From: Holophagales bacterium | GTDB lineage: Bacteria; Acidobacteriota; Thermoanaerobaculia; Multivoradales; Multivoraceae | NCBI GenBank assembly: GCA_009837085.1 | Contig: VXUF01000054.1 | Span: 88,705-152,704, forward strand | Length of the DNA stretch: 64,000 bases | Direction of reading: 5' to 3' | Shown: positions 7,840-31,088 of the stretch, piece by piece | Numbering within the stretch: position 1 is the first letter of the stretch | Layout of the letters: every line of letters starts with the position of its first letter | The notes under the pieces: generated by a model | The model's database searches: none | Told to the model about the DNA's origin: nothing | Seen by the model: only the letters and a program-made list of their open reading frames with translations | Translations under genes and position numbers: made by a program

Positions 7840-7908
7840 GGCGGCGACTACTCTAGAACCTCACGCCGTAGGATTGCGTTGCCCTACCGCGAACGGCCGC
7901 CGCAAGTC

Positions 7909-13954: not shown

Positions 13955-15234
13955 TCCAGATCCACCAGTTCGCTCAGGAGCTCCACCGAACGCTCCACGG
14001 CGCCTCGGTTCCGGTCGACGATCGCGAGACCGCGCCTGCCCTGCTCCGTCGCCTCGCGCGGGTGGTCGAGAAAGCGCCGCCACGCTTCGGTCAACGCCTC
14101 GCCGTCCGCAGCCAGAGTCACGCCATCCGCGACCTCGAGGTCGCGCGCGATGCGCCGGAAGTTCTCCATCGACGGACCGACGATCACGGGCACGCCGAAC
14201 CGCGCCGCCTCGATCGGGTTGTGGCCACCGGTCGGCACGAGCGTGCCGCCGATGAAAGCGACGGACGCCAGCCGGTAGATCGAGGCCAGCTCGCCCAGGG
14301 AGTCGAGGAGGACGATCTCGGGCGGTGACGCCGACGCCGGCTCATGCGCACGAGCGCCGGGAATGCCGCTCCGTCGCATCCCCGGCAGCGACCGTTCCTC
14401 GACCTCTCGCCACACATCGTCGAAGCGTTCCGGATGACGGGGTGCCAGGATCAGCAAGGCCTCGCGGTCCAGCTGCTCGAAGGCGTCGAGGACGATCGGC
14501 TCTTCGCCGGGCATCGTCGAGCCGGCGACCAGGATCGGCCGCTCCGCGGCGAGGTTGCGCAGTGCCTTCTCCAGGCCGGCCACCGGGACCGGTTCCGGGG
14601 TGTCGAACTTCAGGTTGCCGGTCAACGAGGTGCGCGCCGGCCGCGCGCCCAGGCTCAGCAGGCGCTCTTCGTCCTGCGGGCTCTGGGCGCCCAACCGACC
14701 CAGCGGGTCGAGCAGGAACCGCCGGTAGAGACGGCCGGCCCGCTTCATCCGCCCGTAGCTACGGTCGCTGATGCGGGCATTGAGCACGCCCACGGGAATC
14801 GACCGGCGGCGGCAGTCCCGCAGTAGCAGGGGCCAGAGCTCGCTCTCGAACAGGACCAGAGCGCGCGGCGCGTAGCGATCCAGAAAACGCCTGACCAGCA
14901 ACCCCAGGTCGAACGGCAGGTAGGTGACGACCACGCTCCTGCCACCCGCGGCCAAGGGCTCGAAGAGTCTCGTGGCCGCCGCCTGACCCGTGGGCGTCAC
15001 CGTCGTCACCACCAGGTCGAGGTCCGGCGGCAGGGCCCGCGCCAGGGTCGCCGCGACTCCGGCCTCGCCCACCGACGCCGCGTGCAGCCACAGCGGCCTG
15101 GTCCCCCGGGCCTCCGGCAGGCGTCCCAGCCGGGCAGGCAGTGTCGGCAGGTAGTGCCGGCCGCGCCGGGCCAGCAGCACGGGAGCCGCCACGCCCAACC
15201 CTGCCGCCATCGCGAGCTGGTAGAGGAACCACAT
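13951..15234 (-). CDS. waaA: 3-deoxy-D-manno-octulosonic acid transferase (Kdo transferase)
   Basis: N-terminus MWFLYQLAMAAGL...RRGRHYLP is typical of KdtA/WaaA. The ATG at 15234 gives 427 aa. The upstream 207 codons of the ORF look like low-complexity extension. Confidence 0.85.
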   Translation of the reverse strand: MWFLYQLAMAAGLGVAAPVLLARRGRHYLPTLPARLGRLPEARGTRPLWLHAASVGEAGVAATLARALPPDLDLVVTTVTPTGQAAATRLFEPLAAGGRSVVVTYLPFDLGLLVRRFLDRYAPRALVLFESELWPLLLRDCRRRSIPVGVLNARISDRSYGRMKRAGRLYRRFLLDPLGRLGAQSPQDEERLLSLGARPARTSLTGNLKFDTPEPVPVAGLEKALRNLAAERPILVAGSTMPGEEPIVLDAFEQLDREALLILAPRHPERFDDVWREVEERSLPGMRRSGIPGARAHEPASASPPEIVLLDSLGELASIYRLASVAFIGGTLVPTGGHNPIEAARFGVPVIVGPSMENFRRIARDLEVADGVTLAADGEALTEAWRRFLDHPREATEQGRRGLAIVDRNRGAVERSVELLSELVDLD

Positions 15235-15295
15235 AAGGTGACGGCCGGGCGCCCGACCGTTTCCGGTGCAACGCGCAGTGAAGTCATGGGACTGC

Positions 15296-15326
15296 CGAAG
15301 CCCCGTATTGATGCACGAGTATAATT
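15296..15326 (+). promoter_or_regulatory. Possible sigma-70-type -10 element (perfect TATAAT at about 15320-15325, TTGATG 6 nt upstream) about 90 nt upstream of the ECF sigma gene
   Basis: Read directly from the divergent intergenic region 15235-15414. The spacing to the TTGATG is not canonical. Confidence 0.25.
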
Positions 15327-15414
15327 CCGCCGCCTGCTGGCGGAGGGCCCTTCCGTCTCCCGAAGCGCGGCCTCTTGGACGCTTTGCCCCGGGCCTCCGT
15401 ATCAACAGCGAGGC

Positions 15415-16122
15415 ATGAGATCCGCGCAAGCCATCCGCATGGAACCGCCACGCGAAGATCCTCCCCGGAGCGGTCTCACGATCGCGTACTCCCGCCATCA
15501 ACGCCAGGTGGCGTGGAGCGACGCATCCGACCTCGAACTCCTGGAGGGCCTTCGCCGCGACGACGATCTCGCGCTCGACGAGCTGATGCGCCGCAAGACG
15601 ACCCGGCTGGTTCAACTGGCCACCCGGCTGGTTGGCGATCGGGAAGACGCCCGCGACATCGTCCAGATTGCCTTCCTGCGGGTCTGGAACTCGCGGCATC
15701 GATTCGACCGCCGCTACAGCCCGAACACCTGGATCTACCGGATCGTCTCGAACCTCGCGATCGACCACCTGCGGTCCCGCTCCTCCCGCCTGCGCTCGCT
15801 GCAGAGTTTCCAGGTGCACCACGAGCATCAACGGGGAGAGACTTCCGCGCGGCAACTCGATTTACTCTCCGCCAGTGAAGTCCGGTCCGTGTTCCACGAA
15901 CTCGCCTCCACTCTGAGCGAGAAGCAGCGCGCCGTGTTCGTGCTGCGCGAGATGGAGGGGTTGGCCGGCAAGGAGATCGCCGGCATCCTCGGCATCCGTC
16001 CCTCGACCGTCCGCAACCACCTGTTCAACAGCCGCAAGCTGCTCCGCGAGGAGTTGCTCAGGCGATACCCCGAGTACGCGCAGAGAGCCGGAACCCGTGC
16101 CGGGAGAAAGGAGCGCCCATGA
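15415..16122 (+). CDS. ECF-family RNA polymerase sigma factor (sigma-70 regions 2 and 4)
   Basis: Region 2 (DIVQIAFLRVWNSRHRFD...WIYRIVSNLAIDHLR) and region 4 HTH (EKQRAVFVLREMEGLAGKEIAGILGIRPSTV). Confidence 0.9.
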   Translation: MRSAQAIRMEPPREDPPRSGLTIAYSRHQRQVAWSDASDLELLEGLRRDDDLALDELMRRKTTRLVQLATRLVGDREDARDIVQIAFLRVWNSRHRFDRRYSPNTWIYRIVSNLAIDHLRSRSSRLRSLQSFQVHHEHQRGETSARQLDLLSASEVRSVFHELASTLSEKQRAVFVLREMEGLAGKEIAGILGIRPSTVRNHLFNSRKLLREELLRRYPEYAQRAGTRAGRKERP

Positions 16123-16673
16123 CCTCTCTCTGCCCCGACTGGGCTGCCCTCCTCCGCGAACGCGAGCAAGCCGAACGGAGTTCGGAGGTCGGCGACGCGA
16201 CCGCGGACGCCGCCTGGGAAGACGCTCTCCGCCACCGGGAAGACTGCGAACGCTGCCGTAGGGCCTCGCTCGATGCGGATCCAGTGCTGCTGTTCAGCGG
16301 CAACTCCACCCGCGACGACGAGGAGGTCAGTGCGGGTGACATCGACGCGATCCGCCAGCGCGTGCGGCTCGAGCTCGACGGACGGGCGACCGAGAGACGC
16401 CTGAACGAGGCGCGGAGCGCCCGGCGACGGCTGCCCATGGCTTCGGTACTGGCCGCCGGCACCGCGGCCGCGGCGCTCGGCCTGAGTTTCCTGCTGTGGC
16501 CGGAGGCCGCGCCGCCGTCCGAAGAGATCGCGGACGCCACGGCGGTGCTGCCCGACCACATCGCGATGGCGCCGCTGGTCGAGCCGCTCGGCGACGAACC
16601 GCTGCAGGTCTACCAGCTTCCCGGCAACGGCGATGGGGACGGCCTCGACGTGGTCCTGGTGGTGGCGCCGTGA
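16119..16673 (+). CDS. Anti-sigma factor, zf-HC2 type, single TM
   Basis: ATGA overlap with the sigma gene. H-x3-C-x2-C motif (HREDCERC). One TM segment (ASVLAAGTAAAALGLSFLLW). Confidence 0.7.
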   Translation: MTSLCPDWAALLREREQAERSSEVGDATADAAWEDALRHREDCERCRRASLDADPVLLFSGNSTRDDEEVSAGDIDAIRQRVRLELDGRATERRLNEARSARRRLPMASVLAAGTAAAALGLSFLLWPEAAPPSEEIADATAVLPDHIAMAPLVEPLGDEPLQVYQLPGNGDGDGLDVVLVVAP

Positions 16674-17407
16674 GCGCCGTTGGCGCCTTTCGTCGGGCAC
16701 TGGCCGCCCTGCCCCTGCTGACGGCCGCCGGCACACTGCAGCCAGCCTTCGCGCAACCCGGAAACGCGCAGCAGGAGGCCGAGACCCAGATCCGCCACGC
16801 CTTCACGCTCCAGCATCAGCGAGCGGACGACGCCCTGGAGTGGATGCAGAACGAGATGTCGCCCCAGGGCACGATCGAACTGCAGCGAGCGACCAACACC
16901 CTGGTGTTGAGGGACCGGAGCAGCGTGCTCGAGCACCTGCTCGCCTTGCTGCGCGACTTCGACCACCCGCGCCAGCAGATCGAGTTCGAGATCTTCATCC
17001 TCGAGGCGTCGCGCCGCGGCAGCGGCGACCCGCGTTCCGAGCTGCCCGCGCAGCTCACCGACGAGCTGGGCAACTGGCTGGCCTTCACGAGTTACCGTTT
17101 GCTCGGTCAGGGCCAGTTCGAAGCGACAGAGGGCGAGGACGTCCGCTACGAGATCGGCACCGAGTTCCGGCTCAGCTTCCGGGTCGGCACCGTGCTGCTC
17201 GACCGCCGGCTCAAGCTGTACGGAGTCGAGATCGAACGTAGCCGCAGCGCCGTCCTCGACGAGCGAGTCTTCAACGGTCACCTCAACGTGTGGGTCGGGA
17301 AGCCGCTGGTCCTGGCTCTTCCCTATCGGGGATCCGACGCCAGTGGCCTGGTGGTCGCCGTGACTGTACGGTCTCCCCGGGAAGACGGCCTGGGCGCCGG
17401 CGACTAG
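16670..17407 (+). CDS. Periplasmic protein with a single Secretin_N-like domain (no secretin beta-barrel)
   Basis: GTG start overlapping the upstream stop. Signal peptide ending AFA-Q. The segment ATNTLVLRDRSSVLEHLLALLRDFD..QIEFEIFILEAS matches the Secretin_N pattern. Confidence 0.65.
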   Translation: MSAVGAFRRALAALPLLTAAGTLQPAFAQPGNAQQEAETQIRHAFTLQHQRADDALEWMQNEMSPQGTIELQRATNTLVLRDRSSVLEHLLALLRDFDHPRQQIEFEIFILEASRRGSGDPRSELPAQLTDELGNWLAFTSYRLLGQGQFEATEGEDVRYEIGTEFRLSFRVGTVLLDRRLKLYGVEIERSRSAVLDERVFNGHLNVWVGKPLVLALPYRGSDASGLVVAVTVRSPREDGLGAGD

Positions 17408-17421
17408 GAGCGGATCGGGTC

Positions 17422-18659
17422 ATGCAGTTCGTCTGCCGGCTTGGCACCGCCGACGGTCGCATCGTGGAGCAGATCCACGAGGCGCCGGACCTGCGCACCG
17501 CGCGTCGCGAGATCGAGCGCCGCGGACTGTACATCTTCGAGATCAGGCGCCGCGGACTGCAGCACCTCTTCGGGTCGCTTCTGGGCGCGGGTTCGGCCAC
17601 CGGCGAGGGCGGCCGCAAGGCGATCCCGGGACAGGACTTCCTGATCTTCAACCAGCAGTTGGCGGGCCTGCTCAGCGCGGGACTGCCCCTGCTCCAGTGC
17701 CTGGACCTGCTGTGCGAGCGACAGCGCCACGCCGCCTTCAAGGAGGCGCTGAGCGACATCCGGGACCGCGTCGAGAGCGGCGAGGAGCTCTCCGAGGCCT
17801 TTGCGGGCGCGGGGAACTCGTTCCCGCCGATCTACAGCTCGATGCTCAAGGCGGGTGAGCAGAGCGGCGGACTGGAACGGGTCATTCGCCGGTACGTCCG
17901 CCAGCTCAAGCTGGTCACGAGCTCCCGCAAGCGGGTGGTCAGCGCGTTCTTCTACCCGGCCCTCCTGATCTGCCTGTCCGTCGGCATCGTGGCGGTGATG
18001 ATGTTCTTCGTCATGCCCCGCTTCGAGGAGTTCTACGTGGCGCTCGATCTCGATCTTCCCTGGATCACCCAACTCCTCCTCGCCATGTCCCAAGTGCTGC
18101 GCAGTCCGACCACGCTGGTGCTGATGGCCGCAGCAGCGGTCGCGATCTGGGCAAGCTGGAGGATTGGCAGAAGCGGCCGGATCGGTGCCCTGGTCGACCG
18201 CCTGAAACTGCGGTTGCCCATCATCGGGCCGATCTTCCACCGCTTCGCGCTGTCCGAGTTCTGCCGCTCCCTGGCCACCCTGCTGCACGGCGGCCTGCCA
18301 CTCGCCGCGGCGCTCGAAACCGCGGCGTCGGCCGTCACGAACCGGTTCCTGCACCAGCGGGCGGTGGCGCTCGGGCCGCGCATCCGCGAGGGCGAGGCTT
18401 TCCACATGGCGCTCGAAGAATCGGGGGTGTTCACCGACCTGGCGATCGACATGGTCAAGGTCGGCGAAGCGACCGGAGCCCTGGACGAGATGGTGAACAG
18501 CGTTTCCGACTTCCTCGACGAGGATGTCGAGACCCGGACCGAGCGGCTCCTCTCGCTCGTGGAGCCCGTCATGCTGGTCGTCATGGGCTGCACCATCGCA
18601 TTGCTCGTGCTCTCGATGTACCTGCCGCTCTTCAGCGTACTGGGACAGGTGCAGGGCTG

Positions 18660-18660
<1 letters not shown>
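17422..18660 (+). CDS. gspF: Type II secretion / type IV pilus platform protein GspF/PilC family
   Basis: Two T2SSF repeats, 3 TM segments. ATG at 17422 with AGGAG 11 nt upstream. Confidence 0.9.
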
Positions 18661-20345
<1,685 letters not shown>

Positions 20346-21317
20346 GCGCCTCGCCGGCCTCGACGAGCCTCGAGGACCGGCGTCGGTGTTCCTGCTCGAC
20401 GAGCGCGAACTCGTCCTGGCGCACTTCGTTCGCCAGAGCGGTCCCACGCCCGAGCTACAAGCCGTTCGGCGACGGGAACTGCCCGCCGACACGTTCCAGG
20501 AGGGGGCGCTGGGCGGGCCGTTGCGAGAGCCCGCCCAGTTCCACGACGTCGTCGCCGAGCTCCAGCAGGCGGCCGATACAGCCACCGGGGCTCAGGTCAC
20601 CGCCGCCGCACTCGTCCTCCCGGACCGCTGGCTGCGGCTGACGTTCGCGGAACTCGAGGACGTGCCCCGGGGTCCGCAGCATCGCGAGGAGGCCCTCCGC
20701 TTCAAGTTGCGCAAGCAGGTCCCCTTCCGGGTAGAGGAGTTGCGTGTCCGCGGCGCCCGGACCGGAAACGGCACCGGCGAGTCCGCGCGTTTTCTGATCG
20801 CCTTCGGCGTCGAGCGCGTACTGGCCCAGATCGAGGACTCGTTCCGCCGTGCCGGGATTCACATCGGAATGGTCACGAACGCCAGTCTCGGCGCCGTGAA
20901 CGGCATCCGGCAGGTGCACGACGTTAGCGGCGCGTTCCTGCTTGTACTTGCCCACCGCGACGGCTACTCCCTCCTGGCGCACACGGAGGACGGCCCCGCC
21001 CTCTACCGCTACAAGAACTTCGACCCGGCACTTCCTCCCTCGGTCGCTTCCCGACTGGCGGTGCGCGAGCTGCGGCTGACCAGGAGCTTCATCGAGGAGC
21101 GCGGCCTGTTCGGCGCCGAGGCCGGTCTGCCCGAGCACGTTCTGATGCTGGCGGCCGAAGCGTGCCGGGGAACCTGGCGCGAACGGCTCGAGAACGGCCT
21201 GGGGCTACCAGCCCGCGTTCTCGACGACAATACGACCTCCGGCAGCGGAACCGAGGCCGGAGACCTCGAACTCGACCGCGCCCTGCCGATGCTGGGTGCT
21301 TCGCTCGCGGTGAGGAC

Positions 21318-21971
21318 GTGAGCAGGTTCCTGAACCTTGCGGCCCGACCGTTCGTCAACCGCCGCCCCTGGCGCCGGCTGACCGCCCTGCTGTGGGCACT
21401 CGGCCTCGCCCTGCTGACCCTGAACGCGGTGCTGTACTGGGGCTACCTCACCGGCTCAGCCGACGCCCGCGCTGAACTTGCGGGGCTACGGGAGCAGCTC
21501 GCCGGAGACCAGACCGAACTCGACCGGCTGAGCGCCGAACTTACGCGTCTCGACCTGGAGGCGCAGAACCGCGAAGTCACGTTCCTGAACGAGCGCATCG
21601 CGGACCGGCGCTTCCCCTGGGGACAACTCTTCAACGACATCGAGGAAGCGTTGCCGTGGAACACACGTCTGCGAAGTCTGGCGCCCGAGCGCGGCGACCG
21701 GAACCGGCGGCGACGAACGGACTTTGGAACCGGTGACCGGTCCCGAGTGGTCCTCGACCTGACCGGCGAAGCCCGGGACGACCAGGGTCTGCTCGACCTG
21801 ATCGACGCCCTCTTCGAGCATCCTGCCTTCGACGATCCCAAGCTGCTCCACGAGAGCCGGCAGGACGCCGGCCCACTGGACTTCACCATCGCCGTCGTCT
21901 ATCTGCCTGGCGGTTCGCCCGGCAACACCGCGGAGACCGCAGCAGCGGCACCTGCGGAGGTCCAGCCGTGA
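21318..21971 (+). CDS. pilN: PilN-like bitopic membrane protein
   Basis: GTGA overlap. N-terminus LNLAARPFVNRRPWRRL followed by a TM segment, then a coiled-coil, as in PilN/GspL-periplasmic. Confidence 0.65.
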   Translation: MSRFLNLAARPFVNRRPWRRLTALLWALGLALLTLNAVLYWGYLTGSADARAELAGLREQLAGDQTELDRLSAELTRLDLEAQNREVTFLNERIADRRFPWGQLFNDIEEALPWNTRLRSLAPERGDRNRRRRTDFGTGDRSRVVLDLTGEARDDQGLLDLIDALFEHPAFDDPKLLHESRQDAGPLDFTIAVVYLPGGSPGNTAETAAAAPAEVQP

Positions 21972-22549
21972 GACGGCGGCGGCGCGTCTGGCGCCTGCGC
22001 ATCTGGTTCTGGGTCGGCGCGGGCCTGTGCGTCCTCAACGCGGCCCTGCTCTCCACCTACCGCGGCGTCTACGCCGGCCGCTTTCAGGCGCTCGAGGACG
22101 AGATCGCACAAGTCCAGAACCTGCGCACCCGGGCCACGCAGGAGGTGGCCCGCCGCGAGGGCCAGGTGACGACGGTCGAGGCGACCCGCAGCCAGGTGCG
22201 GACCCTGTACCGCGAGGGCTTCGCGACCGAACGCGAACGGTTGACCGACCTGATCGGCGAGGTCAAGGAACTGGCCGGCCGCTCGGGCCTCCGGCCCGGT
22301 TCGATCTCATACCCGGAAGCGACCCTGGAGCAGTATGGCCTGGTCGAGAAGTCGATCGTGTTCACGGTCGAGGGGAACTACCGTCAGTTGCGTGGGCTGG
22401 TCAACCTGCTCGAGGTCACGGACACGTTCGTCGCCCTCGAGTCGATCAGCCTGAGCGAGGCGGCGCCCAACCTGCGTATCGATCTCCGGCTGTCGACCCT
22501 GTTCTCCGGCAACGAGTCCCGGACTTCCCGGCAGGAGGCGGGTGCATGA
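21968..22549 (+). CDS. pilO: PilO-like bitopic membrane protein
   Basis: GTGA overlap. Arg-rich N-terminus plus TM, coiled-coil, and a C-terminal domain resembling PilO/GspM. Confidence 0.6.
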   Translation: MRRRRRVWRLRIWFWVGAGLCVLNAALLSTYRGVYAGRFQALEDEIAQVQNLRTRATQEVARREGQVTTVEATRSQVRTLYREGFATERERLTDLIGEVKELAGRSGLRPGSISYPEATLEQYGLVEKSIVFTVEGNYRQLRGLVNLLEVTDTFVALESISLSEAAPNLRIDLRLSTLFSGNESRTSRQEAGA

Positions 22550-23145
22550 GCGCCAGCCAGGCAAGCTCCAACCGCCCGAACCCGCTGCTGCTGGGACTGC
22601 TCGGCGTCGTCGCGTTGATCGCCGCGTGGCGCTACCTGCCGTCGTTCGGTGGCGGCCCCGGCTTCACGCGCACGACCGCGGCCGACCTGCGTTCGACGAC
22701 GATCGACGTCGTCGAACTCAGCGCCTACATCCTCGGCCAGGCGCCACCGCCCAGCCGGCCGACGCGGGACCCATGGTCCTTCGGAGCCCGGCCCGCCCCA
22801 GAGGCGACCGGCGCCGAGCCGGAAGCGCCTCCGCCCCCCGAACCGCCGCGACCCGCCATTCCCGAGACTGCCGTCCTACCGGAGAAACCGGCGCCGGAAC
22901 CGCTCGGAACCCAGCCACCGCCGGTCGACGTTTTCTACATCGGGTCTTTCGGACGCAGCGACAATCCGATCGCGGTCTTCATCGACGCCGACAAGTCCAT
23001 CTTCAACGCACTCGAGGGCGACCTCGTCAAGGACAAGTTCGAAGTGCAGAACATCGGCTACGAGTCGGTCGATCTGCTCTTCGTGGGTTTCCCGGACGAA
23101 CGGCCGGTGCGGCTCGCCATCGGCGGCCGACCGAGCGGCAGCTAA
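22546..23145 (+). CDS. pilP: PilP-like protein (TM anchor, Pro-rich linker, C-terminal beta domain)
   Basis: ATGA overlap with GGAGG upstream. TM segment LLLGLLGVVALIAAW. The Pro-rich linker and C-terminus (VFYIGSF...AVFIDADKSIF...) resemble PilP. The alternative frame 22542-23153 is Arg-rich nonsense. Confidence 0.6.
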   Translation: MSASQASSNRPNPLLLGLLGVVALIAAWRYLPSFGGGPGFTRTTAADLRSTTIDVVELSAYILGQAPPPSRPTRDPWSFGARPAPEATGAEPEAPPPPEPPRPAIPETAVLPEKPAPEPLGTQPPPVDVFYIGSFGRSDNPIAVFIDADKSIFNALEGDLVKDKFEVQNIGYESVDLLFVGFPDERPVRLAIGGRPSGS

Positions 23146-23158
23146 GGACCTGAACCAC

Positions 23159-25594
23159 ATGAACAAACAAGATCGACAACCAAGGCAGCGACAACGGCGG
23201 CACGCTCTCTCGCTGGGACTCGCGATGCTCCTGATCCTCGCTTCCTGCAGTGGCTATCGGAGCTTCCGGGAGGCGCAGCATTCCGAGCTCACGGGCGACT
23301 GGGATACCGCCGTTCTGCGCTACATGGAGCTCGTCACCGCCGACCCGGCGGATCTCCGCTACCGGGCCGGCCTGCTGCGAGCCAAGACCCAGGCCGCTCA
23401 CGCCCACTTCGAAGCGGGCAGGAAGCTGCAGGAGGCTGGCCGCGATCGGGACGCGATGCTCGAGATGCAGCGAGCCGTGCAGCTCGATCCGACCAACCAG
23501 TACGCCCTGACCGAACTCGAGAAGCTCCGTACGAAGATAGAGACCAGCGGCCTCCAGCCCAGGACCATCTCCCAGATGAAGGACGACGCTCGCGCCGCCG
23601 AGCCGATGCCGCCGACGCTCAGTCCATTGTCCGACGAGCCGGTCAGCTTCGACTTCCCGAACGCGACGTTCATGGAGGTCTATCGGGCGATCGGCCAGGC
23701 TTTCGGGATCAACATCGTCTTCGACACGCGGCTGCGCGACGCACCCGTCGGGACCGAGGGCATCGAGCTACGCGACGTGACGGCAATCGAGGGTCTCGAG
23801 ATCCTGATGCACAGTCTCGGCCACTTCTACCGGGTGCTCGATGAGCAGACGATCATGATCCTCCAGGACACGCAGCAGAACCGGCAGCGGTTCGAGGATC
23901 GCATCATCCAGACGTTCTTTCTCTCGAACTCGGACGTGAAGGACGTGATGACCATCCTGCGCAGCCTGCTGAACACGAGGTTCATCGCGACCAACGAACG
24001 GCTGAACGCGATCGCCATGCTGGACAGCGTGGAGAAGGTCAAGATCGCTCAACGGTTGATCGAGCAGAACGACAAGGCAAAGGCCGAAGTCGTCGTCGAC
24101 GTGGAACTGCTCCAGATAGACACAGCGAAGCTCCAGGAGCTCGGCCTGTCGCTGGACGCGAACCGTCTCGGCATCAGTCTCGACATCGGCGGCGAGGAGG
24201 TGCCCCTCCGGTTGTCGGACGTGGAGTCCCTGAATCAGAACAACTGGGTGCTGACCGTGCCCGGCTTCCTGTTCGATTTCGTCAAGAACGCGACGGATGC
24301 GCAGACCCTGGCCAAACCGCAGGTTCGGATCACCGAAGGTGAGCAGGCGTCCTTCTCGATCGGCGACCGCGTGCCGGTCCCGGTCACCAGCTTCAACACC
24401 GCGAACACGGCGGGCAGCAACATCGTGCCGATCACCTCCTACCAGTACCAGAACGTCGGCATCGACGTGCAGATCACACCACGGGTGCATCACAACGAAG
24501 AGGTCTCGCTCACGCTCAACATCGAGGTCAGCAACATCAGCGGCCAGATCGAAAGCCAGCCGATCATCGGCAGCCGCAACATCGAGACCAGCATCCGGCT
24601 GCGGGACGGTGAGACGAACTTCCTGGCCGGGTTGATCCGTACGTCCGAGACGAACAGTCAAGGCGGCATTCCCGGGCTGTCCGAGATCCCCGTGCTGGGG
24701 CGTCTGTTCTCCCGGCGTTCGACCGACAACAAGCGCACCGACATCGTGCTGACCCTGACGCCCCACATCATCCGGCGCGCGGACATCCGGGAGGAGGACC
24801 TCGCTCCGATCTGGGTCGGCACGGAGAGCAACGTCGTCTACCGAGGCTCGAGCCCGAGGATCGACTCCGGGGTCGACGGGCCCTTCGACGAACCGGCTAC
24901 GGAGAGCGGGGCGCGCGACGAACTCCAGGAACGGCTGCCGCCGGGCCTGCGGGACGCGGCGCCAGAAGGCGGACAGTCACAGGGCGAAGAAGACGATGGA
25001 CCGCCGCTGGGTGTTGAGTTGGTACCGCCGCCCGGAAACCCGCAGCGCAACGCCGGCCGGCTCGACTCCCAACCGGCCCCCGATTCCACACAGATCATCG
25101 TGCCTGCGGCACTCCAGGAACAGGCCGCCCGCTCTACAGCCGAAATCGAGCTGACCTTCGCCCCCGAAGCACTGCGCGCAAGTGTCGGCGACAGTTTCGA
25201 GGTGCGGCTCGACGTCCGGTCCACGGCACCGCTTTCCCACCTGCCGTTGCGGCTGCGCTTCGACCCGTCGCTGATCGAAGTCACCGCGGTGCGGGCGGGG
25301 TCCTTCCTGGGCGACGACGAGGAGATCTCGCTCATGACCAACGAGTCGACCCCGGGCATGGTCGTCGTGGGCCTTAGCCGGCTCGGCGACCGGCCGGGCG
25401 TAGCCGGCCGCGGACGTCTGCTGGCGCTCGAGGTGCGGGCCGTCGATCCGGGGACGGCGACGATCGCTGTCGAGCAGGCCAGGCCCAAGGGCCCGGCTCT
25501 CGAGGAGCTGGCCTCGCCCGACGTTCAGCCGCTCGAGATCGAGATCCGGGACGGAGAGGGTCCGGATCGTGAACGGCCGGAGACGGTCGCATGA
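23159..25594 (+). CDS. Secretin (PilQ/GspD family) lipoprotein with N-terminal TPR-like region and C-terminal cohesin-like domain
   Basis: Lipobox LLILASC. TPR-like segment. Secretin_N repeats. Secretin domain (GGIPGLSEIPVLGRLF, VLTLTPHII). The roughly 150-aa C-terminal extension (EIELTFAPE...FEVRLDV...LRLRFDPSLIEVTAV) is cohesin-like. Confidence 0.88.
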   Translation: MNKQDRQPRQRQRRHALSLGLAMLLILASCSGYRSFREAQHSELTGDWDTAVLRYMELVTADPADLRYRAGLLRAKTQAAHAHFEAGRKLQEAGRDRDAMLEMQRAVQLDPTNQYALTELEKLRTKIETSGLQPRTISQMKDDARAAEPMPPTLSPLSDEPVSFDFPNATFMEVYRAIGQAFGINIVFDTRLRDAPVGTEGIELRDVTAIEGLEILMHSLGHFYRVLDEQTIMILQDTQQNRQRFEDRIIQTFFLSNSDVKDVMTILRSLLNTRFIATNERLNAIAMLDSVEKVKIAQRLIEQNDKAKAEVVVDVELLQIDTAKLQELGLSLDANRLGISLDIGGEEVPLRLSDVESLNQNNWVLTVPGFLFDFVKNATDAQTLAKPQVRITEGEQASFSIGDRVPVPVTSFNTANTAGSNIVPITSYQYQNVGIDVQITPRVHHNEEVSLTLNIEVSNISGQIESQPIIGSRNIETSIRLRDGETNFLAGLIRTSETNSQGGIPGLSEIPVLGRLFSRRSTDNKRTDIVLTLTPHIIRRADIREEDLAPIWVGTESNVVYRGSSPRIDSGVDGPFDEPATESGARDELQERLPPGLRDAAPEGGQSQGEEDDGPPLGVELVPPPGNPQRNAGRLDSQPAPDSTQIIVPAALQEQAARSTAEIELTFAPEALRASVGDSFEVRLDVRSTAPLSHLPLRLRFDPSLIEVTAVRAGSFLGDDEEISLMTNESTPGMVVVGLSRLGDRPGVAGRGRLLALEVRAVDPGTATIAVEQARPKGPALEELASPDVQPLEIEIRDGEGPDRERPETVA

Positions 25595-26061
25595 GGACCG
25601 CCGGCGCGTGGCGAAGAGCCGGCTACACGCTGGTCGAGCTGGTCACGGTCTGTGCCGTCATGCTGGTCCTGGCCGCTGTCGCCCTGCCGACCGCGACCTA
25701 CACGAACAAGAGAATCAAGGAAGCAGAACTGCGCTCCCACCTCCGCCAGATGCGCAACGCGATCGACGAGCACAAGCGCTACAGCGATGTCGGGCTCATC
25801 CCGATCGAGATCGGCACTGACGGCTATCCAAGTGAACTCGAGAACCTGGTGGCGCCCATCCAGCTCATCGGGCAGGCCGAGGGCGAGATCCGTTTCCTCC
25901 GCCGCATCCCCGTCGACCCGATGACCGGCGAGGCGGCGTGGGGGCTGATGAGCTACCAGGATGACCCCGACAACCGTTCGTGGGGAGGCGAGAACGTCTA
26001 CGACGTGTACTCCCTGAGCAACGGCGTCGGTCTGAACCGGGTCCCCTACCGGGAGTGGTGA
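25591..26061 (+). CDS. gspG: GspG-like pseudopilin (prepilin-type N-terminus)
   Basis: Prepilin leader with G/YTLVELV and Glu at +5. C-terminus ...RRIPVDPMTG...W like GspG. Confidence 0.8.
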   Translation: MRTAGAWRRAGYTLVELVTVCAVMLVLAAVALPTATYTNKRIKEAELRSHLRQMRNAIDEHKRYSDVGLIPIEIGTDGYPSELENLVAPIQLIGQAEGEIRFLRRIPVDPMTGEAAWGLMSYQDDPDNRSWGGENVYDVYSLSNGVGLNRVPYREW

Positions 26062-26062
26062 A

Positions 26063-26512
26063 ATGAACGAACGCCTCCGCACCCAGCGCCCAGGGCCCCA
26101 GGGCGGCATGTCTCTGCTGGAACTCATCATCGTGATGGCGATCATCGGCATCCTCGCCGCCGTCGCCGTGCCGCTGCTCAAGAACGCACCCCGGCGGGCG
26201 CAGGAGGCAGCCCTCAAGCAGAACCTCCGTGTCATGCGCGACGCGATCGAGCAGCACTACGCCGACAAGGGTCACTATCCGCCGAGCCTCCAGGCGCTCG
26301 TCGAGGAGGAGTACTTGCGGGCCATCCCGCCCGACCCGATTACCCGCAGCACCGAGACCTGGGTCGAGGTGCTGGCCGAGTTCCCTTCGGCAACCGACGA
26401 AGAGCCCTGGGCCGAGACCGACCTTTCGCAGTTCGGGGATCCGGGAGTCGAGGACGTCCACTCCGGCTCGGAGGAAAGCTCGCTGACCGGGGAGGCTTAT
26501 GCCGACTGGTGA
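26063..26512 (+). CDS. gspG: GspG-like major pseudopilin
   Basis: Leader ...QGG/MSLLELIIVMAIIGILAAVAVP. GspG-like core (HYPPSLQALVEEEYLRAIPPDP). Confidence 0.85.
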   Translation: MNERLRTQRPGPQGGMSLLELIIVMAIIGILAAVAVPLLKNAPRRAQEAALKQNLRVMRDAIEQHYADKGHYPPSLQALVEEEYLRAIPPDPITRSTETWVEVLAEFPSATDEEPWAETDLSQFGDPGVEDVHSGSEESSLTGEAYADW

Positions 26513-27224
26513 CCGCAGGCGCCGCGGCGAGCGGCGCCGGGACGACTCAGCCGAGGCCGGCTACAACCTGGTGGCCCTGGCCATCCTGATCACGGTGATG
26601 AACATCGCAGTCGCGGCAGCACTGCCCTACTGGAGCAGCTGGGCTCAGCGACAGAAGGAAGCCGAACTCATCTTCCGCGGCTTGCAGTACGCCGAGGCGA
26701 TCCGGATCTTTCGTGTCCGTCAGGGACGCCTGCCGACGGCGCTCGAGGAACTGGTCGAAGTACACCCGCGGGCGATTCGTCAACTGTGGCCCAATCCGAT
26801 GGCCGAGGACGGCCGCTGGGGACTGCTGATGCAGGGGGGAGCGAGCAGCACCGATCGGCGCGGCAACCAGAACGACGACGACGAACCGGCGAGCAACGCC
26901 GCGGCCATCGCGGCTGCCGGCGGCGGCGCGATGACCGCCGTTCCGCCGCCGAACGAGGAAGAGGGTGAAGAAACCGTCGTCGGGCCGATCCTTGGGGTCT
27001 ACAGCGCGACGCCCGGTCCCTCGAAGCGCGTCTTCAACGGCCAGCAGGATGTCGGTGACTGGTACTTCACCAGCGAACTGATCCAGCTCAGGCCCGGCAA
27101 CGCCGCCGACGGTCGGCCGCCGCCGCGGCTGACCAGCGAGTGGATCGGCAAGCCGTTCCCGCCTGGAGTGCTCGACGGCCCCAGGGTTCAGGACGGCACG
27201 GCGCCCGGCAGAGAGGCCCGTTGA
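26499..27224 (+). CDS. Atypical minor pseudopilin-like protein (prepilin-like TM, no Glu5, Gly/Asn/Asp-rich linker)
   Basis: N-terminus ...EAG/YNLVALAILITVMNIAVAAALP has Ala at +5. Downstream is a low-complexity Gly/Asp stretch. Confidence 0.55.
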   Translation: MPTGDRRRRGERRRDDSAEAGYNLVALAILITVMNIAVAAALPYWSSWAQRQKEAELIFRGLQYAEAIRIFRVRQGRLPTALEELVEVHPRAIRQLWPNPMAEDGRWGLLMQGGASSTDRRGNQNDDDEPASNAAAIAAAGGGAMTAVPPPNEEEGEETVVGPILGVYSATPGPSKRVFNGQQDVGDWYFTSELIQLRPGNAADGRPPPRLTSEWIGKPFPPGVLDGPRVQDGTAPGREAR

Positions 27225-27685
27225 GCACGGAAGCCGCCGTTGCCGTCCGGATTCGCCTGCTGCCGCACGCCGCCGGTCTGCCGGAACGGGCTTCGAGCGG
27301 CAGCGCCGGCTACGACCTGCGCGCCGCCACTTCAGAGCCGGTCCGGATCGCCCCCGGCGCGCGAAGTCTGATCCCGACAGGTCTGATTCTCGGCCTGCCG
27401 CCTGGCTACGAGGCGCAGATCCGGCCCCGCAGCGGACTCGCGTTTCGCCAGGGCCTGACGGTTCTGAACGCTCCTGGCACGATCGACAGCGACTATCGAG
27501 GCGAAGTCAAGCTGCTGCTGGCCAACCTGGGCGACGAGCCCGTGGACGTTGAACGCGGCCAGCGGCTGGCGCAGATGGTGGTCGCCGCCGTGCCCGAGAT
27601 CAGGTTCCAGGAGGACGACTCCCTCGGACAACGGCCCACGGAGGGCGGCCGCAACGACGGTGGCTTCGGATCCACCGGCACCTAG
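27221..27685 (+). CDS. dut: dUTP diphosphatase
   Basis: dUTPase motifs (AGYDLRA, RSGLA, GTIDSDYRGE, GGFGSTG). TTG start overlapping the upstream stop. Confidence 0.88.
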   Translation: MSTEAAVAVRIRLLPHAAGLPERASSGSAGYDLRAATSEPVRIAPGARSLIPTGLILGLPPGYEAQIRPRSGLAFRQGLTVLNAPGTIDSDYRGEVKLLLANLGDEPVDVERGQRLAQMVVAAVPEIRFQEDDSLGQRPTEGGRNDGGFGSTGT

Positions 27686-27689
27686 CCAG

Positions 27690-28280
27690 CTAGTTCGAGT
27701 CGCCGTCGCCGGCGGTCCAGCTCGGCAAGGACGCGGGATCGATCCCCAGTGACGCAAGCGCGCCCGACCAGGCGCCTACTGGATCAGTGGAAAACACGAT
27801 GGACTCCTCGACCGGCGCCGTCAGCCAGTCGCTGCGGCTGACCTCCTGCATCAACTGACCCGGTGCCCAGCCCGCGTGGCCCAGGAGCAGCCTCATCCGA
27901 TCCGGTGCGCTACGGGCAAGCGTGCGCAGCGCGAGAATGTTCTGCGTGGCTCCGACGCCCGGGGCGATCTCCGTGATGCCGTCCCGCTCCAGGCCAGTCA
28001 GGCCGTCGAGAGACAGCAGCACCGTGCCGACCTCAGGCTGCACCGGACCGCCGACGAAGGCCACGACTTCCGAGCCTCCGGACCACTCGATGTCGAGTTC
28101 ACGCAGGACCTCGTCGACCTTGAGCTGGCTCGGCCGGTTGACGACGAAGCCCAGACTGCCCCCCTCGCCGCCATCCTCGTGGGCCGCGAGCAGTACGACC
28201 GCCCGAAAGAAGAACGGATCGAGAACCTGGGGCATGGCGACCAGCAGCGTCGGCGTCTCGAAGTCGTCCACCCCCGACAT
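27690..28280 (-). CDS. YqgE/AlgH family protein (UPF0301)
   Basis: Whole-length match to the YqgE/AlgH pattern (LLVAMP...DPFFRAVVLL...GGP). Confidence 0.85.
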   Translation of the reverse strand: MSGVDDFETPTLLVAMPQVLDPFFFRAVVLLAAHEDGGEGGSLGFVVNRPSQLKVDEVLRELDIEWSGGSEVVAFVGGPVQPEVGTVLLSLDGLTGLERDGITEIAPGVGATQNILALRTLARSAPDRMRLLLGHAGWAPGQLMQEVSRSDWLTAPVEESIVFSTDPVGAWSGALASLGIDPASLPSWTAGDGDSN

Positions 28281-28352
28281 GAGCGCGACTCTACATGCGG
28301 CCGCGGGTCATGGCCGACTGACGACCGCGGCGCTTTGGGTTATCTTGTGGAC

Positions 28353-31088
28353 ATGACGAACAGCTTCGGCGCGATGCGAACGATGACCGCTGCCGGGCGA
28401 TCCTTCCGGATCGCTCACCTGCCTACACTGGGAGCCGCCGGCTTGCCGATAGAACGGCTGCCGTACGCCCTGAAGATACTGCTGGAGAACCTGCTCCGCC
28501 GGGAGGACGGTCGCGTCGTTCCGGCCGGCGACATCGAGGCCGTGGCGCGCTGGGAACCCCTGGCCGAACCGAATGTCGAGATCGCCTTCATGCCCGGCCG
28601 GGTGCTGCTCCAGGACTTCACCGGCGTACCCGCCGTGGCCGACCTTGCCGCAATGCGGGATGCGATGGCGGCCATGGGCAGCGATGCTGCCCGCATCAAC
28701 CCGTTGCAGCCGGCAGAGCTGGTGATCGACCACTCCGTGCAGGTCGACGAATACGGTTCCGCCGCGGCGCTGCTGATCAACGCCGAGCGCGAGTTCGAGC
28801 GCAACGAAGAGCGCTACCTGTTCCTGCGCTGGGGCCAGACCGCCTTCGAGAACTTCCGCGTCGTGCCGCCGGCAACCGGCATCGTTCACCAGGTCAACCT
28901 CGAGTACCTCGCGCGTGGCGTGATGACCTCGCGGAACGGTCACACCGAGGCTCCCTTCGCCTATCCCGACACGCTGGTGGGCACCGACTCCCACACCACG
29001 ATGATCAACGGCCTGGGGGTCCTCGGCTGGGGCGTGGGCGGCATCGAGGCGGAGGCCGCGATGCTGGGTCAGCCGATCGCCATGCTGGTGCCGCAGGTCG
29101 TCGGCTTCCGGCTCGTCGGCGCCCTGCCGGAGGGCACGACCGCCACCGACCTCGTACTGCGAGTGACGGAGATGCTGCGCAGCCACGGAGTCGTCGGCAA
29201 GTTCGTCGAGTTCTTCGGGCCCGGGCTCGCCGACCTCAGACTGGCCGACCGCGCGACGATCGCGAACATGGCGCCCGAGTACGGCGCCACCTGCGGCATC
29301 TTCCCGATCGACCGTGCCGCCATCGACTACCTCCGGTTCACCGGGCGCAGCGAACGGCAGGTGGAGTTGGTCGAGGCGTACTGCCGCGAACAGGGGCTCT
29401 TCCACGATTCGGACACGCCGGAAGCGGAGTACAGCGACACGCTGGAACTCGACCTGGCCACGGTCGAGCCGTCGCTGGCCGGCCCCCGACGACCCCAGGA
29501 TCGGGTTCCCCTGTCCGAGGTCAAGGACTCCTTCCTCGGTCAGTTGCCTCAGTTGTCGACCCGCGGCGGTGGCCTGCCGGTACTCGACGGCAACAGCGCG
29601 GCCGACGACGCCACGGCTGCCGACGACGCCGCGAATGCCGGTGAACGGCCCGGGATCACCGACGGTTCCGTGGTCATCGCCGCCATCACGAGCTGCACGA
29701 ACACCTCGAACCCGTCCGTCATGCTGGCGGCCGGCCTGCTGGCGAAGAACGCCGTCGAGGCCGGCCTGCGGACCCGGCCGTGGGTGAAGACGAGTCTGGC
29801 GCCCGGGTCCAAGGTCGTGACCGACTACCTGGCCGAGGCCGGCCTGACCGCCTACCTGGAACAGCTCGGCTTCCACACCGTCGGTTACGGCTGCACGACC
29901 TGTATCGGCAACAGCGGCCCGCTGCCCCCCGCGACATCGACCGCGATCGCCGAAGGCGAGCTGGTCACCGTTTCCGTCCTCTCCGGGAATCGCAACTTCG
30001 AGGGACGTATCTCGAGCGAGGTGCGCGCCAACTACCTGGCCTCACCCCCGCTGGTCGTGGCCTACGCGCTCGCCGGCCGCATCGACATCGATCTGTACCG
30101 CGAACCGCTCGCCGACGGACCCGACGGACCCGTCTACCTGCGCGACCTCTGGCCGGCTCAGGGCGACATCCAGGCGGCCCTCGAGAACTCGCTGCGGCCA
30201 GAGATGTTCACGCGCCAGTACTCCGACGTCTTCGCGGGCAGCGAGACCTGGCAGGCACTCGACGTTCCCTCGGGCCAGACGTTCGACTGGCAGGCCGATT
30301 CGACCTACGTGAAGCAGCCTCCGTTCTTCGTCGACATGCCGCGCCAGCCGGAACCCGTCCAGGACATCCGCGGCGCCAGGGTGTTGGCCTTGCTCGGCGA
30401 CACGGTGACCACGGACCACATCTCGCCCGCCGGCCCGATCAGTAGCGACAGTCCGGCCGCTGCCTATCTGCGCGGCCTGGGAGTGGAGCCCCTCCAGTTC
30501 AACTCGTACGGCGCCCGCCGCGGCAACCACGAGGTCATGATGCGCGGCACGTTCGCCAACGTCCGCCTCCGCAACCACCTGGTGCCGGGAGTCGAGGGCG
30601 GCTACACCGTGCTGCTGCCGGAAGGCGAGCAGATGTCGATCTTCGACGCGGCGATGGCCTACCGCGAACGCGGCGTGCCCCAGATCATCCTGGCCGGCCT
30701 CGAGTACGGCACGGGGTCGTCGCGCGATTGGGCCGCCAAGGGGCCCCGGCTGCTCGGCGTAGGGGCGGTCATCGCCAGGAGCTACGAACGGATCCACCGC
30801 AGCAACCTGGTCGGGATGGGGATCGCGCCGCTTGAGTTCCTGGACGGCGAAGGTCCCGCCGAACTGGGGCTCACGGGCCGCGAGGAGTACGCCATCGAAG
30901 GGCTTGCCGCCGGACTCGCAGCGGACTTCGAACCCGGCCTGACCGTGCGTGTGCGAGCAACGGGCGATGACGGCGAGATCGCCTTCCGCGCGCGCGTCCG
31001 CCTCGACACGCCCCAGGAGGCGGAGTACTACCGGCACGCGGGCATCCTCCAGTACGTGCTGCGACAGCTCCTTGACGACGACGCCTGA
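28353..31088 (+). CDS. acnA: Aconitate hydratase A
   Basis: 911 aa. Fe-S ligand and active-site regions (TDSHTTM, NTSNPSV, CTTCIGNSG, SGNRNFEGR) and swivel domain. Confidence 0.95.
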   Translation: MTNSFGAMRTMTAAGRSFRIAHLPTLGAAGLPIERLPYALKILLENLLRREDGRVVPAGDIEAVARWEPLAEPNVEIAFMPGRVLLQDFTGVPAVADLAAMRDAMAAMGSDAARINPLQPAELVIDHSVQVDEYGSAAALLINAEREFERNEERYLFLRWGQTAFENFRVVPPATGIVHQVNLEYLARGVMTSRNGHTEAPFAYPDTLVGTDSHTTMINGLGVLGWGVGGIEAEAAMLGQPIAMLVPQVVGFRLVGALPEGTTATDLVLRVTEMLRSHGVVGKFVEFFGPGLADLRLADRATIANMAPEYGATCGIFPIDRAAIDYLRFTGRSERQVELVEAYCREQGLFHDSDTPEAEYSDTLELDLATVEPSLAGPRRPQDRVPLSEVKDSFLGQLPQLSTRGGGLPVLDGNSAADDATAADDAANAGERPGITDGSVVIAAITSCTNTSNPSVMLAAGLLAKNAVEAGLRTRPWVKTSLAPGSKVVTDYLAEAGLTAYLEQLGFHTVGYGCTTCIGNSGPLPPATSTAIAEGELVTVSVLSGNRNFEGRISSEVRANYLASPPLVVAYALAGRIDIDLYREPLADGPDGPVYLRDLWPAQGDIQAALENSLRPEMFTRQYSDVFAGSETWQALDVPSGQTFDWQADSTYVKQPPFFVDMPRQPEPVQDIRGARVLALLGDTVTTDHISPAGPISSDSPAAAYLRGLGVEPLQFNSYGARRGNHEVMMRGTFANVRLRNHLVPGVEGGYTVLLPEGEQMSIFDAAMAYRERGVPQIILAGLEYGTGSSRDWAAKGPRLLGVGAVIARSYERIHRSNLVGMGIAPLEFLDGEGPAELGLTGREEYAIEGLAAGLAADFEPGLTVRVRATGDDGEIAFRARVRLDTPQEAEYYRHAGILQYVLRQLLDDDA

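Follow-up and report, generated by a model that had tools for sequence, protein, structure and literature searches.

Introduction

The two type IV filament (TFF) machines closest to the system described here are the type IVa pilus (T4aP) and the type II secretion system (T2SS). In current accounts the T2SS derives from the T4aP by loss of PilT, and its GspL is PilM fused to PilN (PMC10191384). According to Denise et al. 2019, T4aP genes are typically scattered over several loci, and 884 'generic' or chimeric TFF systems are set apart there that have an ATPase, a platform and a pilin and whose components match profiles of different TFF types (PMC6668835). Control of secretion machines by extracytoplasmic function (ECF) sigma factors also has precedents. 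In P. aeruginosa, the vreA-vreI-vreR genes (PUMA3) lie directly upstream of the Hxc T2SS, and overexpression of VreI induces the hxc genes; VreA is a small periplasmic STN-domain protein with a TolA/TonB-like C-terminal domain, while VreI and VreR are of the FecI/FecR type (PMC2729926). The ECF32 group is conserved beside type III secretion system genes, and an ECF-controlled type IX secretion system is cited in the same paper (PMC7826278).

We analysed a 64-kb stretch of DNA from a Holophagales bacterium (contig VXUF01000054.1; hereafter the window, numbered from its first letter), in which an ECF sigma factor gene heads a tight series of TFF assembly genes. A sequence-only reading had taken this series for a hybrid of T2SS and T4aP parts under direct ECF control. 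Our results show the arrangement to be real: it persists throughout one class of Acidobacteriota and appears to be a variant, not described before, of a machine type already known. It is probably a self-contained TFF machine of a distinct lineage, encoded as one coupled unit of 14 genes with an autoregulated ECF promoter and, as sampled, confined to Thermoanaerobaculia. What is new about it is an ECF module fused class-wide into the machine operon, a family of mini-secretins, and a fusion of TPR, secretin and cohesin-like domains.

A tightly coupled chain of 14 genes

Because the G+C content of the window is ~69%, long spurious open reading frames (ORFs) occur in all frames; coding frames were set by G+C at third codon positions (GC3) together with homology. 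On the + strand, genes for the sigma factor, an anti-sigma factor, a short secretin-like protein (the mini-secretin), a platform protein, an assembly ATPase, PilM-like, PilN-like and PilO-like proteins, a protein in the PilP position, a secretin and three pilin-like proteins follow one another at spacings, in that order, of -4, -4, +14, -1, -32, -4, -4, -4, +13, -4, +1 and -14 nt. The public gene calls of three assemblies with an identical ATPase agree with this chain (235, 184-185, 245, 412, 561, 311-335, 217, 193, 199, 789-811, 156, 149 and 241 residues). The measured spacings and the public calls bear out the unbroken, co-oriented chain of the sequence-only reading, with its overlaps of 1-32 nt or gaps of at most 14 nt, and the spacing together with the Pfam and NCBIfam matches of the sigma factor likewise upholds one tightly coupled unit led by that factor.

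The count of thirteen genes ending at 27224 had to be revised. The last pilin gene overlaps by 4 nt a dUTPase gene (dut; 27221-27685, + strand; Pfam dUTPase 8.3e-26), whose TTG start codon (27221) shares bases with the stop codon of that pilin gene. With dut the chain probably ends, at a total of 14 genes. Two of the three public assemblies call dut identically, and nearly all related loci have it after their last pilin gene; beyond it lies a convergent DUF179 gene (27690-28280, - strand). A terminator scan of 14800-28600 returned no terminator-like site above chance, and scans of the window found neither Rfam families nor tRNA genes, tRNA-Sec included.

Conservation across Thermoanaerobaculia

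Databases contain 230 relatives of the PilM-like protein, and no Pfam domain is recorded for any of them. One genome per species was scanned for such relatives; this gave 218 loci, and the best 80 of them, which were analysed, all come from the class Thermoanaerobaculia (Acidobacteriota). Identity in PilM is 69-96% for 'Candidatus Multivorans' and further metagenome-assembled genomes (MAGs), and ~40% for mostly soil-type MAGs. When the 13 proteins were searched by tblastn, all 13 genes proved collinear in 80/80 loci as far as each contig extends. This synteny check thus gave the same gene order throughout the best 80 loci, far beyond chance, and the kept order includes the sigma, anti-sigma and mini-secretin genes, down to ~40% PilM identity.

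Sequence and spacing are kept as well. ATPase identity is 78-86% even in distant loci, the overlap between the ATPase and PilM genes is exactly 32 nt in 22 of the 22 loci tabulated, and the PilM N-terminal peptide MRSTKLPSWIERL persists even in relatives of ~40% identity. Since the overlap is fixed and MRSTKLPSWIERL conserved, both reading frames of 20314-20345 appear to be constrained. The divergent waaA-lpxK genes upstream and dut downstream are also conserved in related loci. Because gene order, the 32-nt overlap and these flanking genes are all conserved, the arrangement, sigma module included, is ancestral and maintained in the class, not a chance juxtaposition.

Assembly ATPase, platform and PilM-like, PilN-like and PilO-like proteins

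The platform gene (17422-18660, + strand) encodes a 412-residue inner-membrane protein of the GspF/PilC family that matched Pfam T2SSF in two stretches (4.9e-58) and the NCBIfam GspF model at 308 bits (cutoff 424), compared with 248 bits for the PilC models. The 561-residue ATPase of the PilB/GspE family (18660-20345, + strand) matched Pfam T2SSE (6e-130) and MshEN and carries a CxxC...CxxC tetracysteine motif (Cys 452, 455, 487 and 490). Its NCBIfam scores for GspE (545 bits, cutoff 630) and PilB (539 bits) both fell below cutoff. Among PDB sequences it scored 426 bits with Geobacter PilB, 409 with Myxococcus PilB and 362 with Vibrio GspE. The sequence-only reading had called ATPase and platform alike T2SS-like; for the ATPase, which is as close to PilB as to GspE, this label is not specific. 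Pfam MshEN also matches the N-termini of PilB and GspE proteins in general, and by eye the N-terminus of this ATPase contains no RLGxxLLxxGLI-type repeat, the c-di-GMP-binding MshEN motif.

The next gene (20314-21321, + strand), whose first 32 nt lie inside the ATPase gene, encodes a PilM-type cytoplasmic actin-like protein of 335 residues without a transmembrane (TM) segment; its conserved N-terminus backs the long start. Single-protein Pfam and NCBIfam runs returned nothing for it. Its family profile, however, matched Thermus PilM (2ych) at E 7.7e-5, and in a Foldseek search with its AlphaFold2 model (pLDDT 82.6) the top ten matches were all PilM (E 1.5e-16 to 2.5e-13, TM-score 0.5-0.68), followed by FtsA, with the GspL cytoplasmic domain at rank 26 (E 1e-10). 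The PilN-like bitopic protein (217 residues; 21318-21971, + strand) starts with a conserved LNLAxRPFxNxRP peptide followed by a TM segment (20-42). Pfam PilN matched it at 19 bits and matched 17 of the 60 orthologs scanned (best 2.9e-6). Separate PilM and PilN proteins, a trait of the T4aP, are thus present here, and binding between the two is predicted.

Downstream lies a bitopic protein of the PilO/GspM family (193 residues, TM segment 10-30; 21968-22549, + strand). It matched NCBIfam GspM_XpsM at 2.1e-5, its family profile matched Myxococcus PilO (3jc8) at E 0.006, and among 60 orthologs scanned Pfam PilO matched 18, T2SSM_b 14 and T2SSM 7. It is intermediate between PilO and GspM, which form one superfamily. 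GC3 places the frame of the following gene in the ORF 22027..23145, with its start at 22546, and not in the mechanical ORF 22542..23153. The resulting 199-residue protein in the PilP/GspC position (22546-23145, + strand) has an N-terminal TM helix (13-33), a Pro-rich linker and a C-terminal beta domain, of which ~75 residues are conserved and beta-rich in the alignment; its assignment to the PilP family is putative. It has no lipobox and no Cys and is therefore not a lipoprotein. Neither Pfam, NCBIfam nor the PDB gave a match, and none of 21 orthologs matched PilP, T2SSC or PDZ; it has 406 relatives, and all 120 of those listed are unannotated. By eye its pattern resembles what we take to be that of PilP and GspC-HR domains.

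The PilM-N-O-P platform of the sequence-only reading therefore stands in part: PilM is supported by fold, PilN and PilO by ortholog profile matches that are weak and recurrent, and PilP by position and architecture alone. Had the four been GspL, GspM and GspC, the system would be a conventional T2SS; for PilM and PilN this does not hold, as the fold ranks PilM before FtsA and FtsA before GspL and the genes are separate.

A fused lipoprotein secretin and a mini-secretin

The secretin gene (23159-25594, + strand) encodes 811 residues comprising a lipobox, whose Cys30 is the only Cys of the protein, a TPR region, N0 (STN-like) and N1 domains, the secretin domain (PF00263), a conserved post-secretin segment, a Pro-rich linker and a cohesin-like domain. 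The window protein matched Pfam Secretin (9.6e-42), Secretin_N (4.5e-7), Cohesin (22 bits) and, weakly, TPR_2. Among 21 orthologs the counts were Secretin 21, Secretin_N 21, TPR_2 20, Cohesin 17 (best 2.3e-9), FecR_C 6 and STN 6, and the TPR region matched consensus TPR proteins at 1.7e-7. With TPR_2 in 20/21 and Cohesin in 17/21 orthologs, a lipoprotein secretin with a TPR N-terminus and a cohesin-like C-terminus is confirmed. NCBIfam scores for GspD (146 bits, cutoff 351), PilQ (95 bits) and MshL (80 bits, cutoff 250) were all far below the cutoffs, and Pfam detected no AMIN domain in the window protein or the 21 orthologs.

The cohesin-like region has no PDB sequence relative. It is missing or disrupted in three marine lineages (L017, L036 and L037; alignment columns ~850-1000) and otherwise kept in marine and soil clades, so it is dispensable in some genomes. 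A separate observation concerns the N0 region (residues ~155-240), which in 6/21 orthologs matches FecR_C (best 2.5e-5) and STN (3.5e-3). In TonB-dependent cell-surface signalling, contact with the anti-sigma factor is made through domains of these types.

The mini-secretin gene (16670-17407, + strand, GTG start) always lies between the anti-sigma and platform genes. Its 245-residue product has a signal peptide, one secretin N-domain and a secretin-like beta domain of ~130 residues. The sequence-only reading had described it as a standalone Secretin_N protein. Pfam Secretin_N, and not STN, does match it; we nevertheless regard it as a truncated paralogue of the secretin. Its likeness to secretins is by fold and by a weak profile-profile match: residues 29-185 are collinear with residues 238-427 of the operon's own secretin (N1 and the start of the secretin domain) at E 0.02 and a reported probability of 2.4%. 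PF00263 gave no match at E<=0.01. At E<=1e-30, an exhaustive profile search collected 178 clusters (the family numbers ~180 when clustered at 50% identity), and nearly every match listed is full-length, with 220-300 residues; the few that are named are Acidobacteriota 'hypothetical' or 'secretin N-terminal domain-containing' proteins. As far as sequence goes, the mini-secretins form a family of truncated secretin paralogues without the status of a full secretin. Their most likely place is either in the ring, outer-membrane or periplasmic, or in the signalling module.

Pilin-like proteins and genes absent from the window

Three pilin-like proteins are encoded after the secretin. Pilin 1 (156 residues; 25591-26061, + strand; G|YTLVE) is type IV pilin-like and matched Pfam N_methyl at 21.1 bits and, weakly, NCBIfam PilA and GspG; all its orthologs conserve G-1 and E+5 in the form G|(Y/F)TL(V/A)E. 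Pilin 2 (149 residues; 26063-26512, + strand; G|MSLLE), also type IV pilin-like and weakly GspG-like, matched N_methyl at 28.2 bits and NCBIfam GspG at 42.7 bits against a cutoff of 88.85. Its N-terminus is conserved as G|(M/F)(S/T)LLE, and its N-terminal helix is closest to Geobacter PilA-N. Pilin 3 (241 residues, TM segment 20-46; 26499-27224, + strand; G|YNLVA) matched no family; it has a class III-like N-terminus, in which G|YN(L/M)V precedes a non-acidic residue, and lacks E+5 in all orthologs, as GspK lacks Glu5. The sole globular pilin family matched, and that weakly, was T2SSG, in 21 of 61 pilin orthologs (best 3.4e-4).

A motif-level check of the 64-kb window revealed no PilT or second T2SSE-type Walker A motif and no PilD/prepilin peptidase motif. 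At that level and within that window, the sequence-only reading was right that both enzymes are missing. Minor pilins, PilY1, PilT/PilU and PilD are absent, at motif level, from the window, and likewise from the related loci with 10 kb on either side.

Elsewhere in the window, a protein of up to 1445 residues with FG-GAP and TPR repeats (7108-11445, + strand) is conserved in close marine relatives; it is possibly exported and has no established tie to the machine. The segment 191-4026 contains a histidine-kinase ATPase fragment, a sigma-54-dependent response regulator (722-2089) and the selenocysteine elongation factor SelB (1783-4026).

Sigma factor, anti-sigma factor and control region

The ECF sigma factor (235 residues; 15415-16122, + strand) matched Pfam Sigma70_r2 (4.9e-18), Sigma70_r4_2 (3.6e-14) and Sigma70_ECF (1.5e-5) and NCBIfam TIGR02937 (101 bits, cutoff 42.9); it has sigma-2 and sigma-4 regions only. 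The anti-sigma factor (184 residues; 16119-16673, + strand) spans the membrane once (TM segment 107-128) and ends in a short conserved periplasmic tail with a strand-like motif, E..L....VYQ...VV.VV. Its orthologs share an invariant C5 and an invariant H39-x3-C43-x2-C46 (HxxxCxxC), and the three Cys are the only ones in the protein. Pfam zf-HC2 was not significant in the window protein and reached E 0.075 in 2/19 orthologs, the NCBIfam anti-sigma model gave 16.9 bits, and Pfam found no FecR domain in the window protein or its orthologs. The zf-HC2 assignment of the sequence-only reading has the invariant HxxxCxxC in its favour and against it the Pfam model, which stayed below significance. At motif level the protein is a ZAS-type membrane anti-sigma factor, with zinc binding predicted. 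Since it combines a single TM pass with a conserved periplasmic tail, it would be expected to sense an envelope signal.

Two promoter-like elements lie within the 180 nt that separate waaA from the sigma gene. The upstream one, AGTATAAT (15318-15325, + strand), holds a housekeeping-type -10 hexamer (TATAAT) and occurs upstream of the sigma gene in 63/69 loci, always preceding the ECF-like motif; a strict two-hexamer sigma-70 scan found no -35 element matching it. The downstream one, GGACGC-N14-CCGTAT (15377-15402, + strand), is an ECF-type bipartite motif, with 12 nt between the end of its -10 part and the sigma ATG. It is found at the same place as RGACGC-N14-CCGTAT in 65/69 loci, 60 of which have both elements. 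Its spacer is constant in length and differs in sequence between clades, and the motif stands at a constant ~12 nt from the sigma start codon, while its distance to TATAAT varies over 23-185 nt. The fixed spacer length, variable spacer sequence and fixed start-codon distance are better explained by a two-part promoter than by an RNA structure. In the 64-kb window there is one copy of the motif where 0.12 would be expected, and no recurrent second copy was seen within the operon or 10 kb to either side in any locus. Its ..GAC, 17 nt, CGTA arrangement is that of ECF promoters with a SigW-type consensus. A transcript from it would have a very short leader.

A match to a loosened promoter pattern at 10950 was set aside as chance: it lies inside the FG-GAP gene and has a different spacing. 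Between the TATAAT element and the ECF-type motif, at ~15327-15350, lies an inverted repeat, CCGCCGCC-TGCT-GGCGGAGG, which could be an operator or form a hairpin in the leader; clade L019-L035 has a longer version. On the other side of the intergenic region, waaA (Kdo transferase; 13951-15234) and lpxK (12965-14083) are encoded on the - strand, divergent from the sigma gene, and this pairing is class-wide. The lipid A/core genes and the machine operon therefore share the 180-nt control region.

Proposed mechanism and alternatives

We propose that the TATAAT promoter would provide basal expression and that a periplasmic or envelope signal would remove the anti-sigma factor, upon which the sigma factor would transcribe from its own promoter. 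As there is no terminator and no room between the genes, RNA polymerase would read through the whole chain, so that the machine would be made in a positive-feedback burst. Once cleaved by a prepilin peptidase encoded elsewhere, the pilins would be polymerised by the ATPase, the platform and the PilMNO proteins into a filament beneath the secretin, short and non-retractile. We give slightly less than even credence to an endopilus by which folded proteins would be pushed out in the manner of a T2SS, and a surface pilus is a possibility held more tentatively still; of the two, the endopilus is somewhat more likely.

Several points tell against this proposal. The PilP-like gene lacks family support, and the ECF-type motif is assigned by its resemblance to ECF promoters and by conservation, so that it should be called a predicted promoter. 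Internal promoters may exist within the coding sequence, which keeps the single transcript a prediction, and a housekeeping dut gene at the end of the chain argues for partly constitutive expression. There are three pilin-like genes only, with no GspH-K or PilV-X set detected at the locus, and no evident substrate gene nearby. As our examination covered the locus and the window, the choice between secretion and a pilus draws on locus organisation and on the weak GspG-like features of the pilins; the pilins of the Thermus T4aP also resemble pseudopilins, as the title of PMC5131608 indicates.

What kind of machine this is can be argued in two other ways. The locus could encode a genuine T4aP serving adhesion, motility or DNA uptake, with PilT, peptidase, minor pilins and PilY1 elsewhere in the genome and a superficial likeness to the T2SS. 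The separate PilM, PilN and PilO genes and the PilM fold speak for this, as do the closeness of the ATPase to Geobacter and Myxococcus PilB among solved proteins, a secretin with N0, one N-domain and a TPR lipoprotein module, and the PilA-N-like N-terminus of pilin 2; missing genes would also fit the scattering stated to be typical of T4aP (PMC6668835). We consider it unlikely, though not negligible, because all assembly genes sit in one locus without a PilT, second ATPase or PilD motif in 64 kb, the one globular pilin family matched, weakly, is T2SSG, no AMIN domain was detected in the secretin, the PilP-position protein is not a lipoprotein, and the NCBIfam PilB, PilQ and PilA equivalogs all stayed below cutoff. 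Conversely, the PilM/N/O/P labels could be wrong and stand for the GspL, GspM and GspC of a conventional T2SS. It is single and compact, as T2SS loci are, the PilO-like protein matches GspM_XpsM (2.1e-5) and T2SSM_b (14 orthologs), and platform and secretin score higher with GspF and GspD than with PilC and PilQ models. This reading is contradicted by the split of PilM from PilN: no TM segment occurs in the actin-like protein, whose gene is separate from the PilN-like one, while GspL is a fusion (PMC10191384). Ten PilM chains rank before any GspL (rank 26, E 1e-10), the PilP-position protein has no PDZ or T2SSC match, no GspH-K was detected, and no Gsp equivalog reached its NCBIfam cutoff; a mislabelled T2SS is accordingly very improbable. 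A self-contained machine of a distinct lineage remains the reading that we prefer.

Its control is open to two further objections, both improbable in our judgement. The sigma, anti-sigma and mini-secretin genes might form a separate regulatory unit, with the machine on its own promoter and outside the control of this sigma factor. Promoters can sit inside coding sequence, dut at the chain end needs constitutive expression, and in the soil clade the start codons picked leave 3-63 nt before the platform gene. Yet no locus of the class departs from this adjacency and order, the platform gene starts only 14 nt after the mini-secretin gene, whose stop codon is overlapped by a Shine-Dalgarno-like GGAG, no terminator-like site lies between these two genes, and the third gene of the sigma module is a secretin paralogue, which implies a functional tie to the machine. 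The other objection concerns the signal. Expression could be gated by cytoplasmic redox state through the zinc-binding HxxxCxxC of the anti-sigma factor, as in RsrA, and the invariance in all orthologs of C5, H39, C43 and C46, which include its only cysteines, would suit such a switch. The anti-sigma factor, however, spans the membrane and has a conserved periplasmic tail, Pfam zf-HC2 was not significant, and most ZAS-motif anti-sigma factors use zinc structurally rather than as redox sensors, the known redox sensors being soluble. The redox gating put forward by the sequence-only reading is thus not supported.

Control by an envelope signal could take a more specific form. The mini-secretin and the anti-sigma tail might together be a new envelope sensor, in which the truncated paralogue would inform the anti-sigma factor of how far the real secretin is assembled or how heavily it is loaded, so that the operon would be on only when the pore can be, or is being, built. 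For this the mini-secretin could, for example, strand-pair with the conserved C-terminal VYQ...VV.VV motif. We regard this as speculative and rather unlikely. If true, it would be a secretin-based analogue of TonB-dependent cell-surface signalling, built into a deep-branching TFF machine that keeps the unfused PilM and PilN expected of the T4aP-to-T2SS transition.

Comparison with known systems

A limited check of the literature on T2SS, PilM and secretins of Thermoanaerobaculia and Acidobacteria found no description of this system, and within that check the main text of the ECF reclassification mentions neither secretins nor pili. The generic TFF systems of Denise et al. are a bin and not a described system, and the passages on them mention no Acidobacteria, ECF module or mini-secretin (PMC6668835).

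The nearest regulatory parallel is PUMA3. There as here, an ECF sigma factor, a membrane anti-sigma factor and a small periplasmic protein with a secretin- or TonB-related N-domain are encoded directly upstream of T2SS-type genes, and given the precedent of VreI and Hxc (PMC2729926), the sequence-only reading overstated its case in calling direct ECF control of such a machine an arrangement not commonly described. The two modules differ in that a ZAS-motif anti-sigma factor with a short tail and a truncated secretin stand here in place of the FecR-type VreR and the STN protein VreA, and in gene order, the module here lying inside the coupled chain and being conserved class-wide. The parallel between PUMA3 and the sigma/anti-sigma/mini-secretin module is suggestive and drawn by analogy.

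These findings leave the general picture of TFF machines and of ECF regulation unchanged. They do offer a clean case of a sigma factor, an anti-sigma factor and a structural paralogue hard-wired into a machine operon. Wherever a source names them, the mini-secretin and PilP-position families carry no functional annotation, and a role for both would annotate a conserved envelope system of Acidobacteriota, including abundant sponge symbionts and soil lineages. Unfused PilM and PilN in a T2SS-like single locus, kept class-wide, also make the system a natural comparison point for the T4aP-to-T2SS transition (PMC10191384).

The MSH pilus was considered on account of the TPR module and MshEN and was rejected, since MshL scored 80 bits against a cutoff of 250 and MSH is confined to Proteobacteria, whereas the taxon here is Acidobacteriota. 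With the T2SS the locus shares a single compact organisation, a tetracysteine ATPase of the PilB/GspE family, a GspF-family platform, a secretin, a GspM/PilO-family protein, short pilins with weak GspG-like features and the lack of a retraction ATPase in the locus. It differs in that PilM and PilN are unfused where the T2SS has the fused GspL; in the lack of a GspC with PDZ and of detected GspH/I/J/K at the locus, although the TM anchor of the PilP-position protein is GspC-like; and in its secretin, which has N0 and one N-domain (N0-N3 in the T2SS) plus TPR and cohesin-like modules. The absence of a GspL fusion, of GspC and of detected GspH-K, together with Gsp equivalog scores that reach no NCBIfam cutoff (GspE 545/630, GspF 308/424, GspD 146/351, GspG 43/89), means that it is not a canonical T2SS.

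With the T4aP of Myxococcus, Thermus and Pseudomonas it shares the split PilM, PilN and PilO, the PilM fold and an ATPase nearest to PilB. The TPR lipoproteins PilF, PilW and Tgl are T4aP pilotins; here a similar TPR lipoprotein module accompanies the secretin, but as a fusion. The T4aP differs from the present system, which occupies one locus without PilT/PilU, PilD, a minor pilin set or PilY1 nearby, has a TM-anchored and not a lipoprotein PilP-position protein and no detected AMIN domains, and carries an extra mini-secretin and an ECF sigma module inside the operon. The single locus, the lack of PilT and PilD nearby, the lack of a lipoprotein PilP and the absence of detected AMIN domains mean that it is not a canonical T4aP either. 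The locus is thus neither a canonical T2SS, a canonical T4aP nor an MSH pilus, and in composition the most fitting description is that of a T4aP-type assembly platform joined to a locus organisation and pilins that are T2SS-like.

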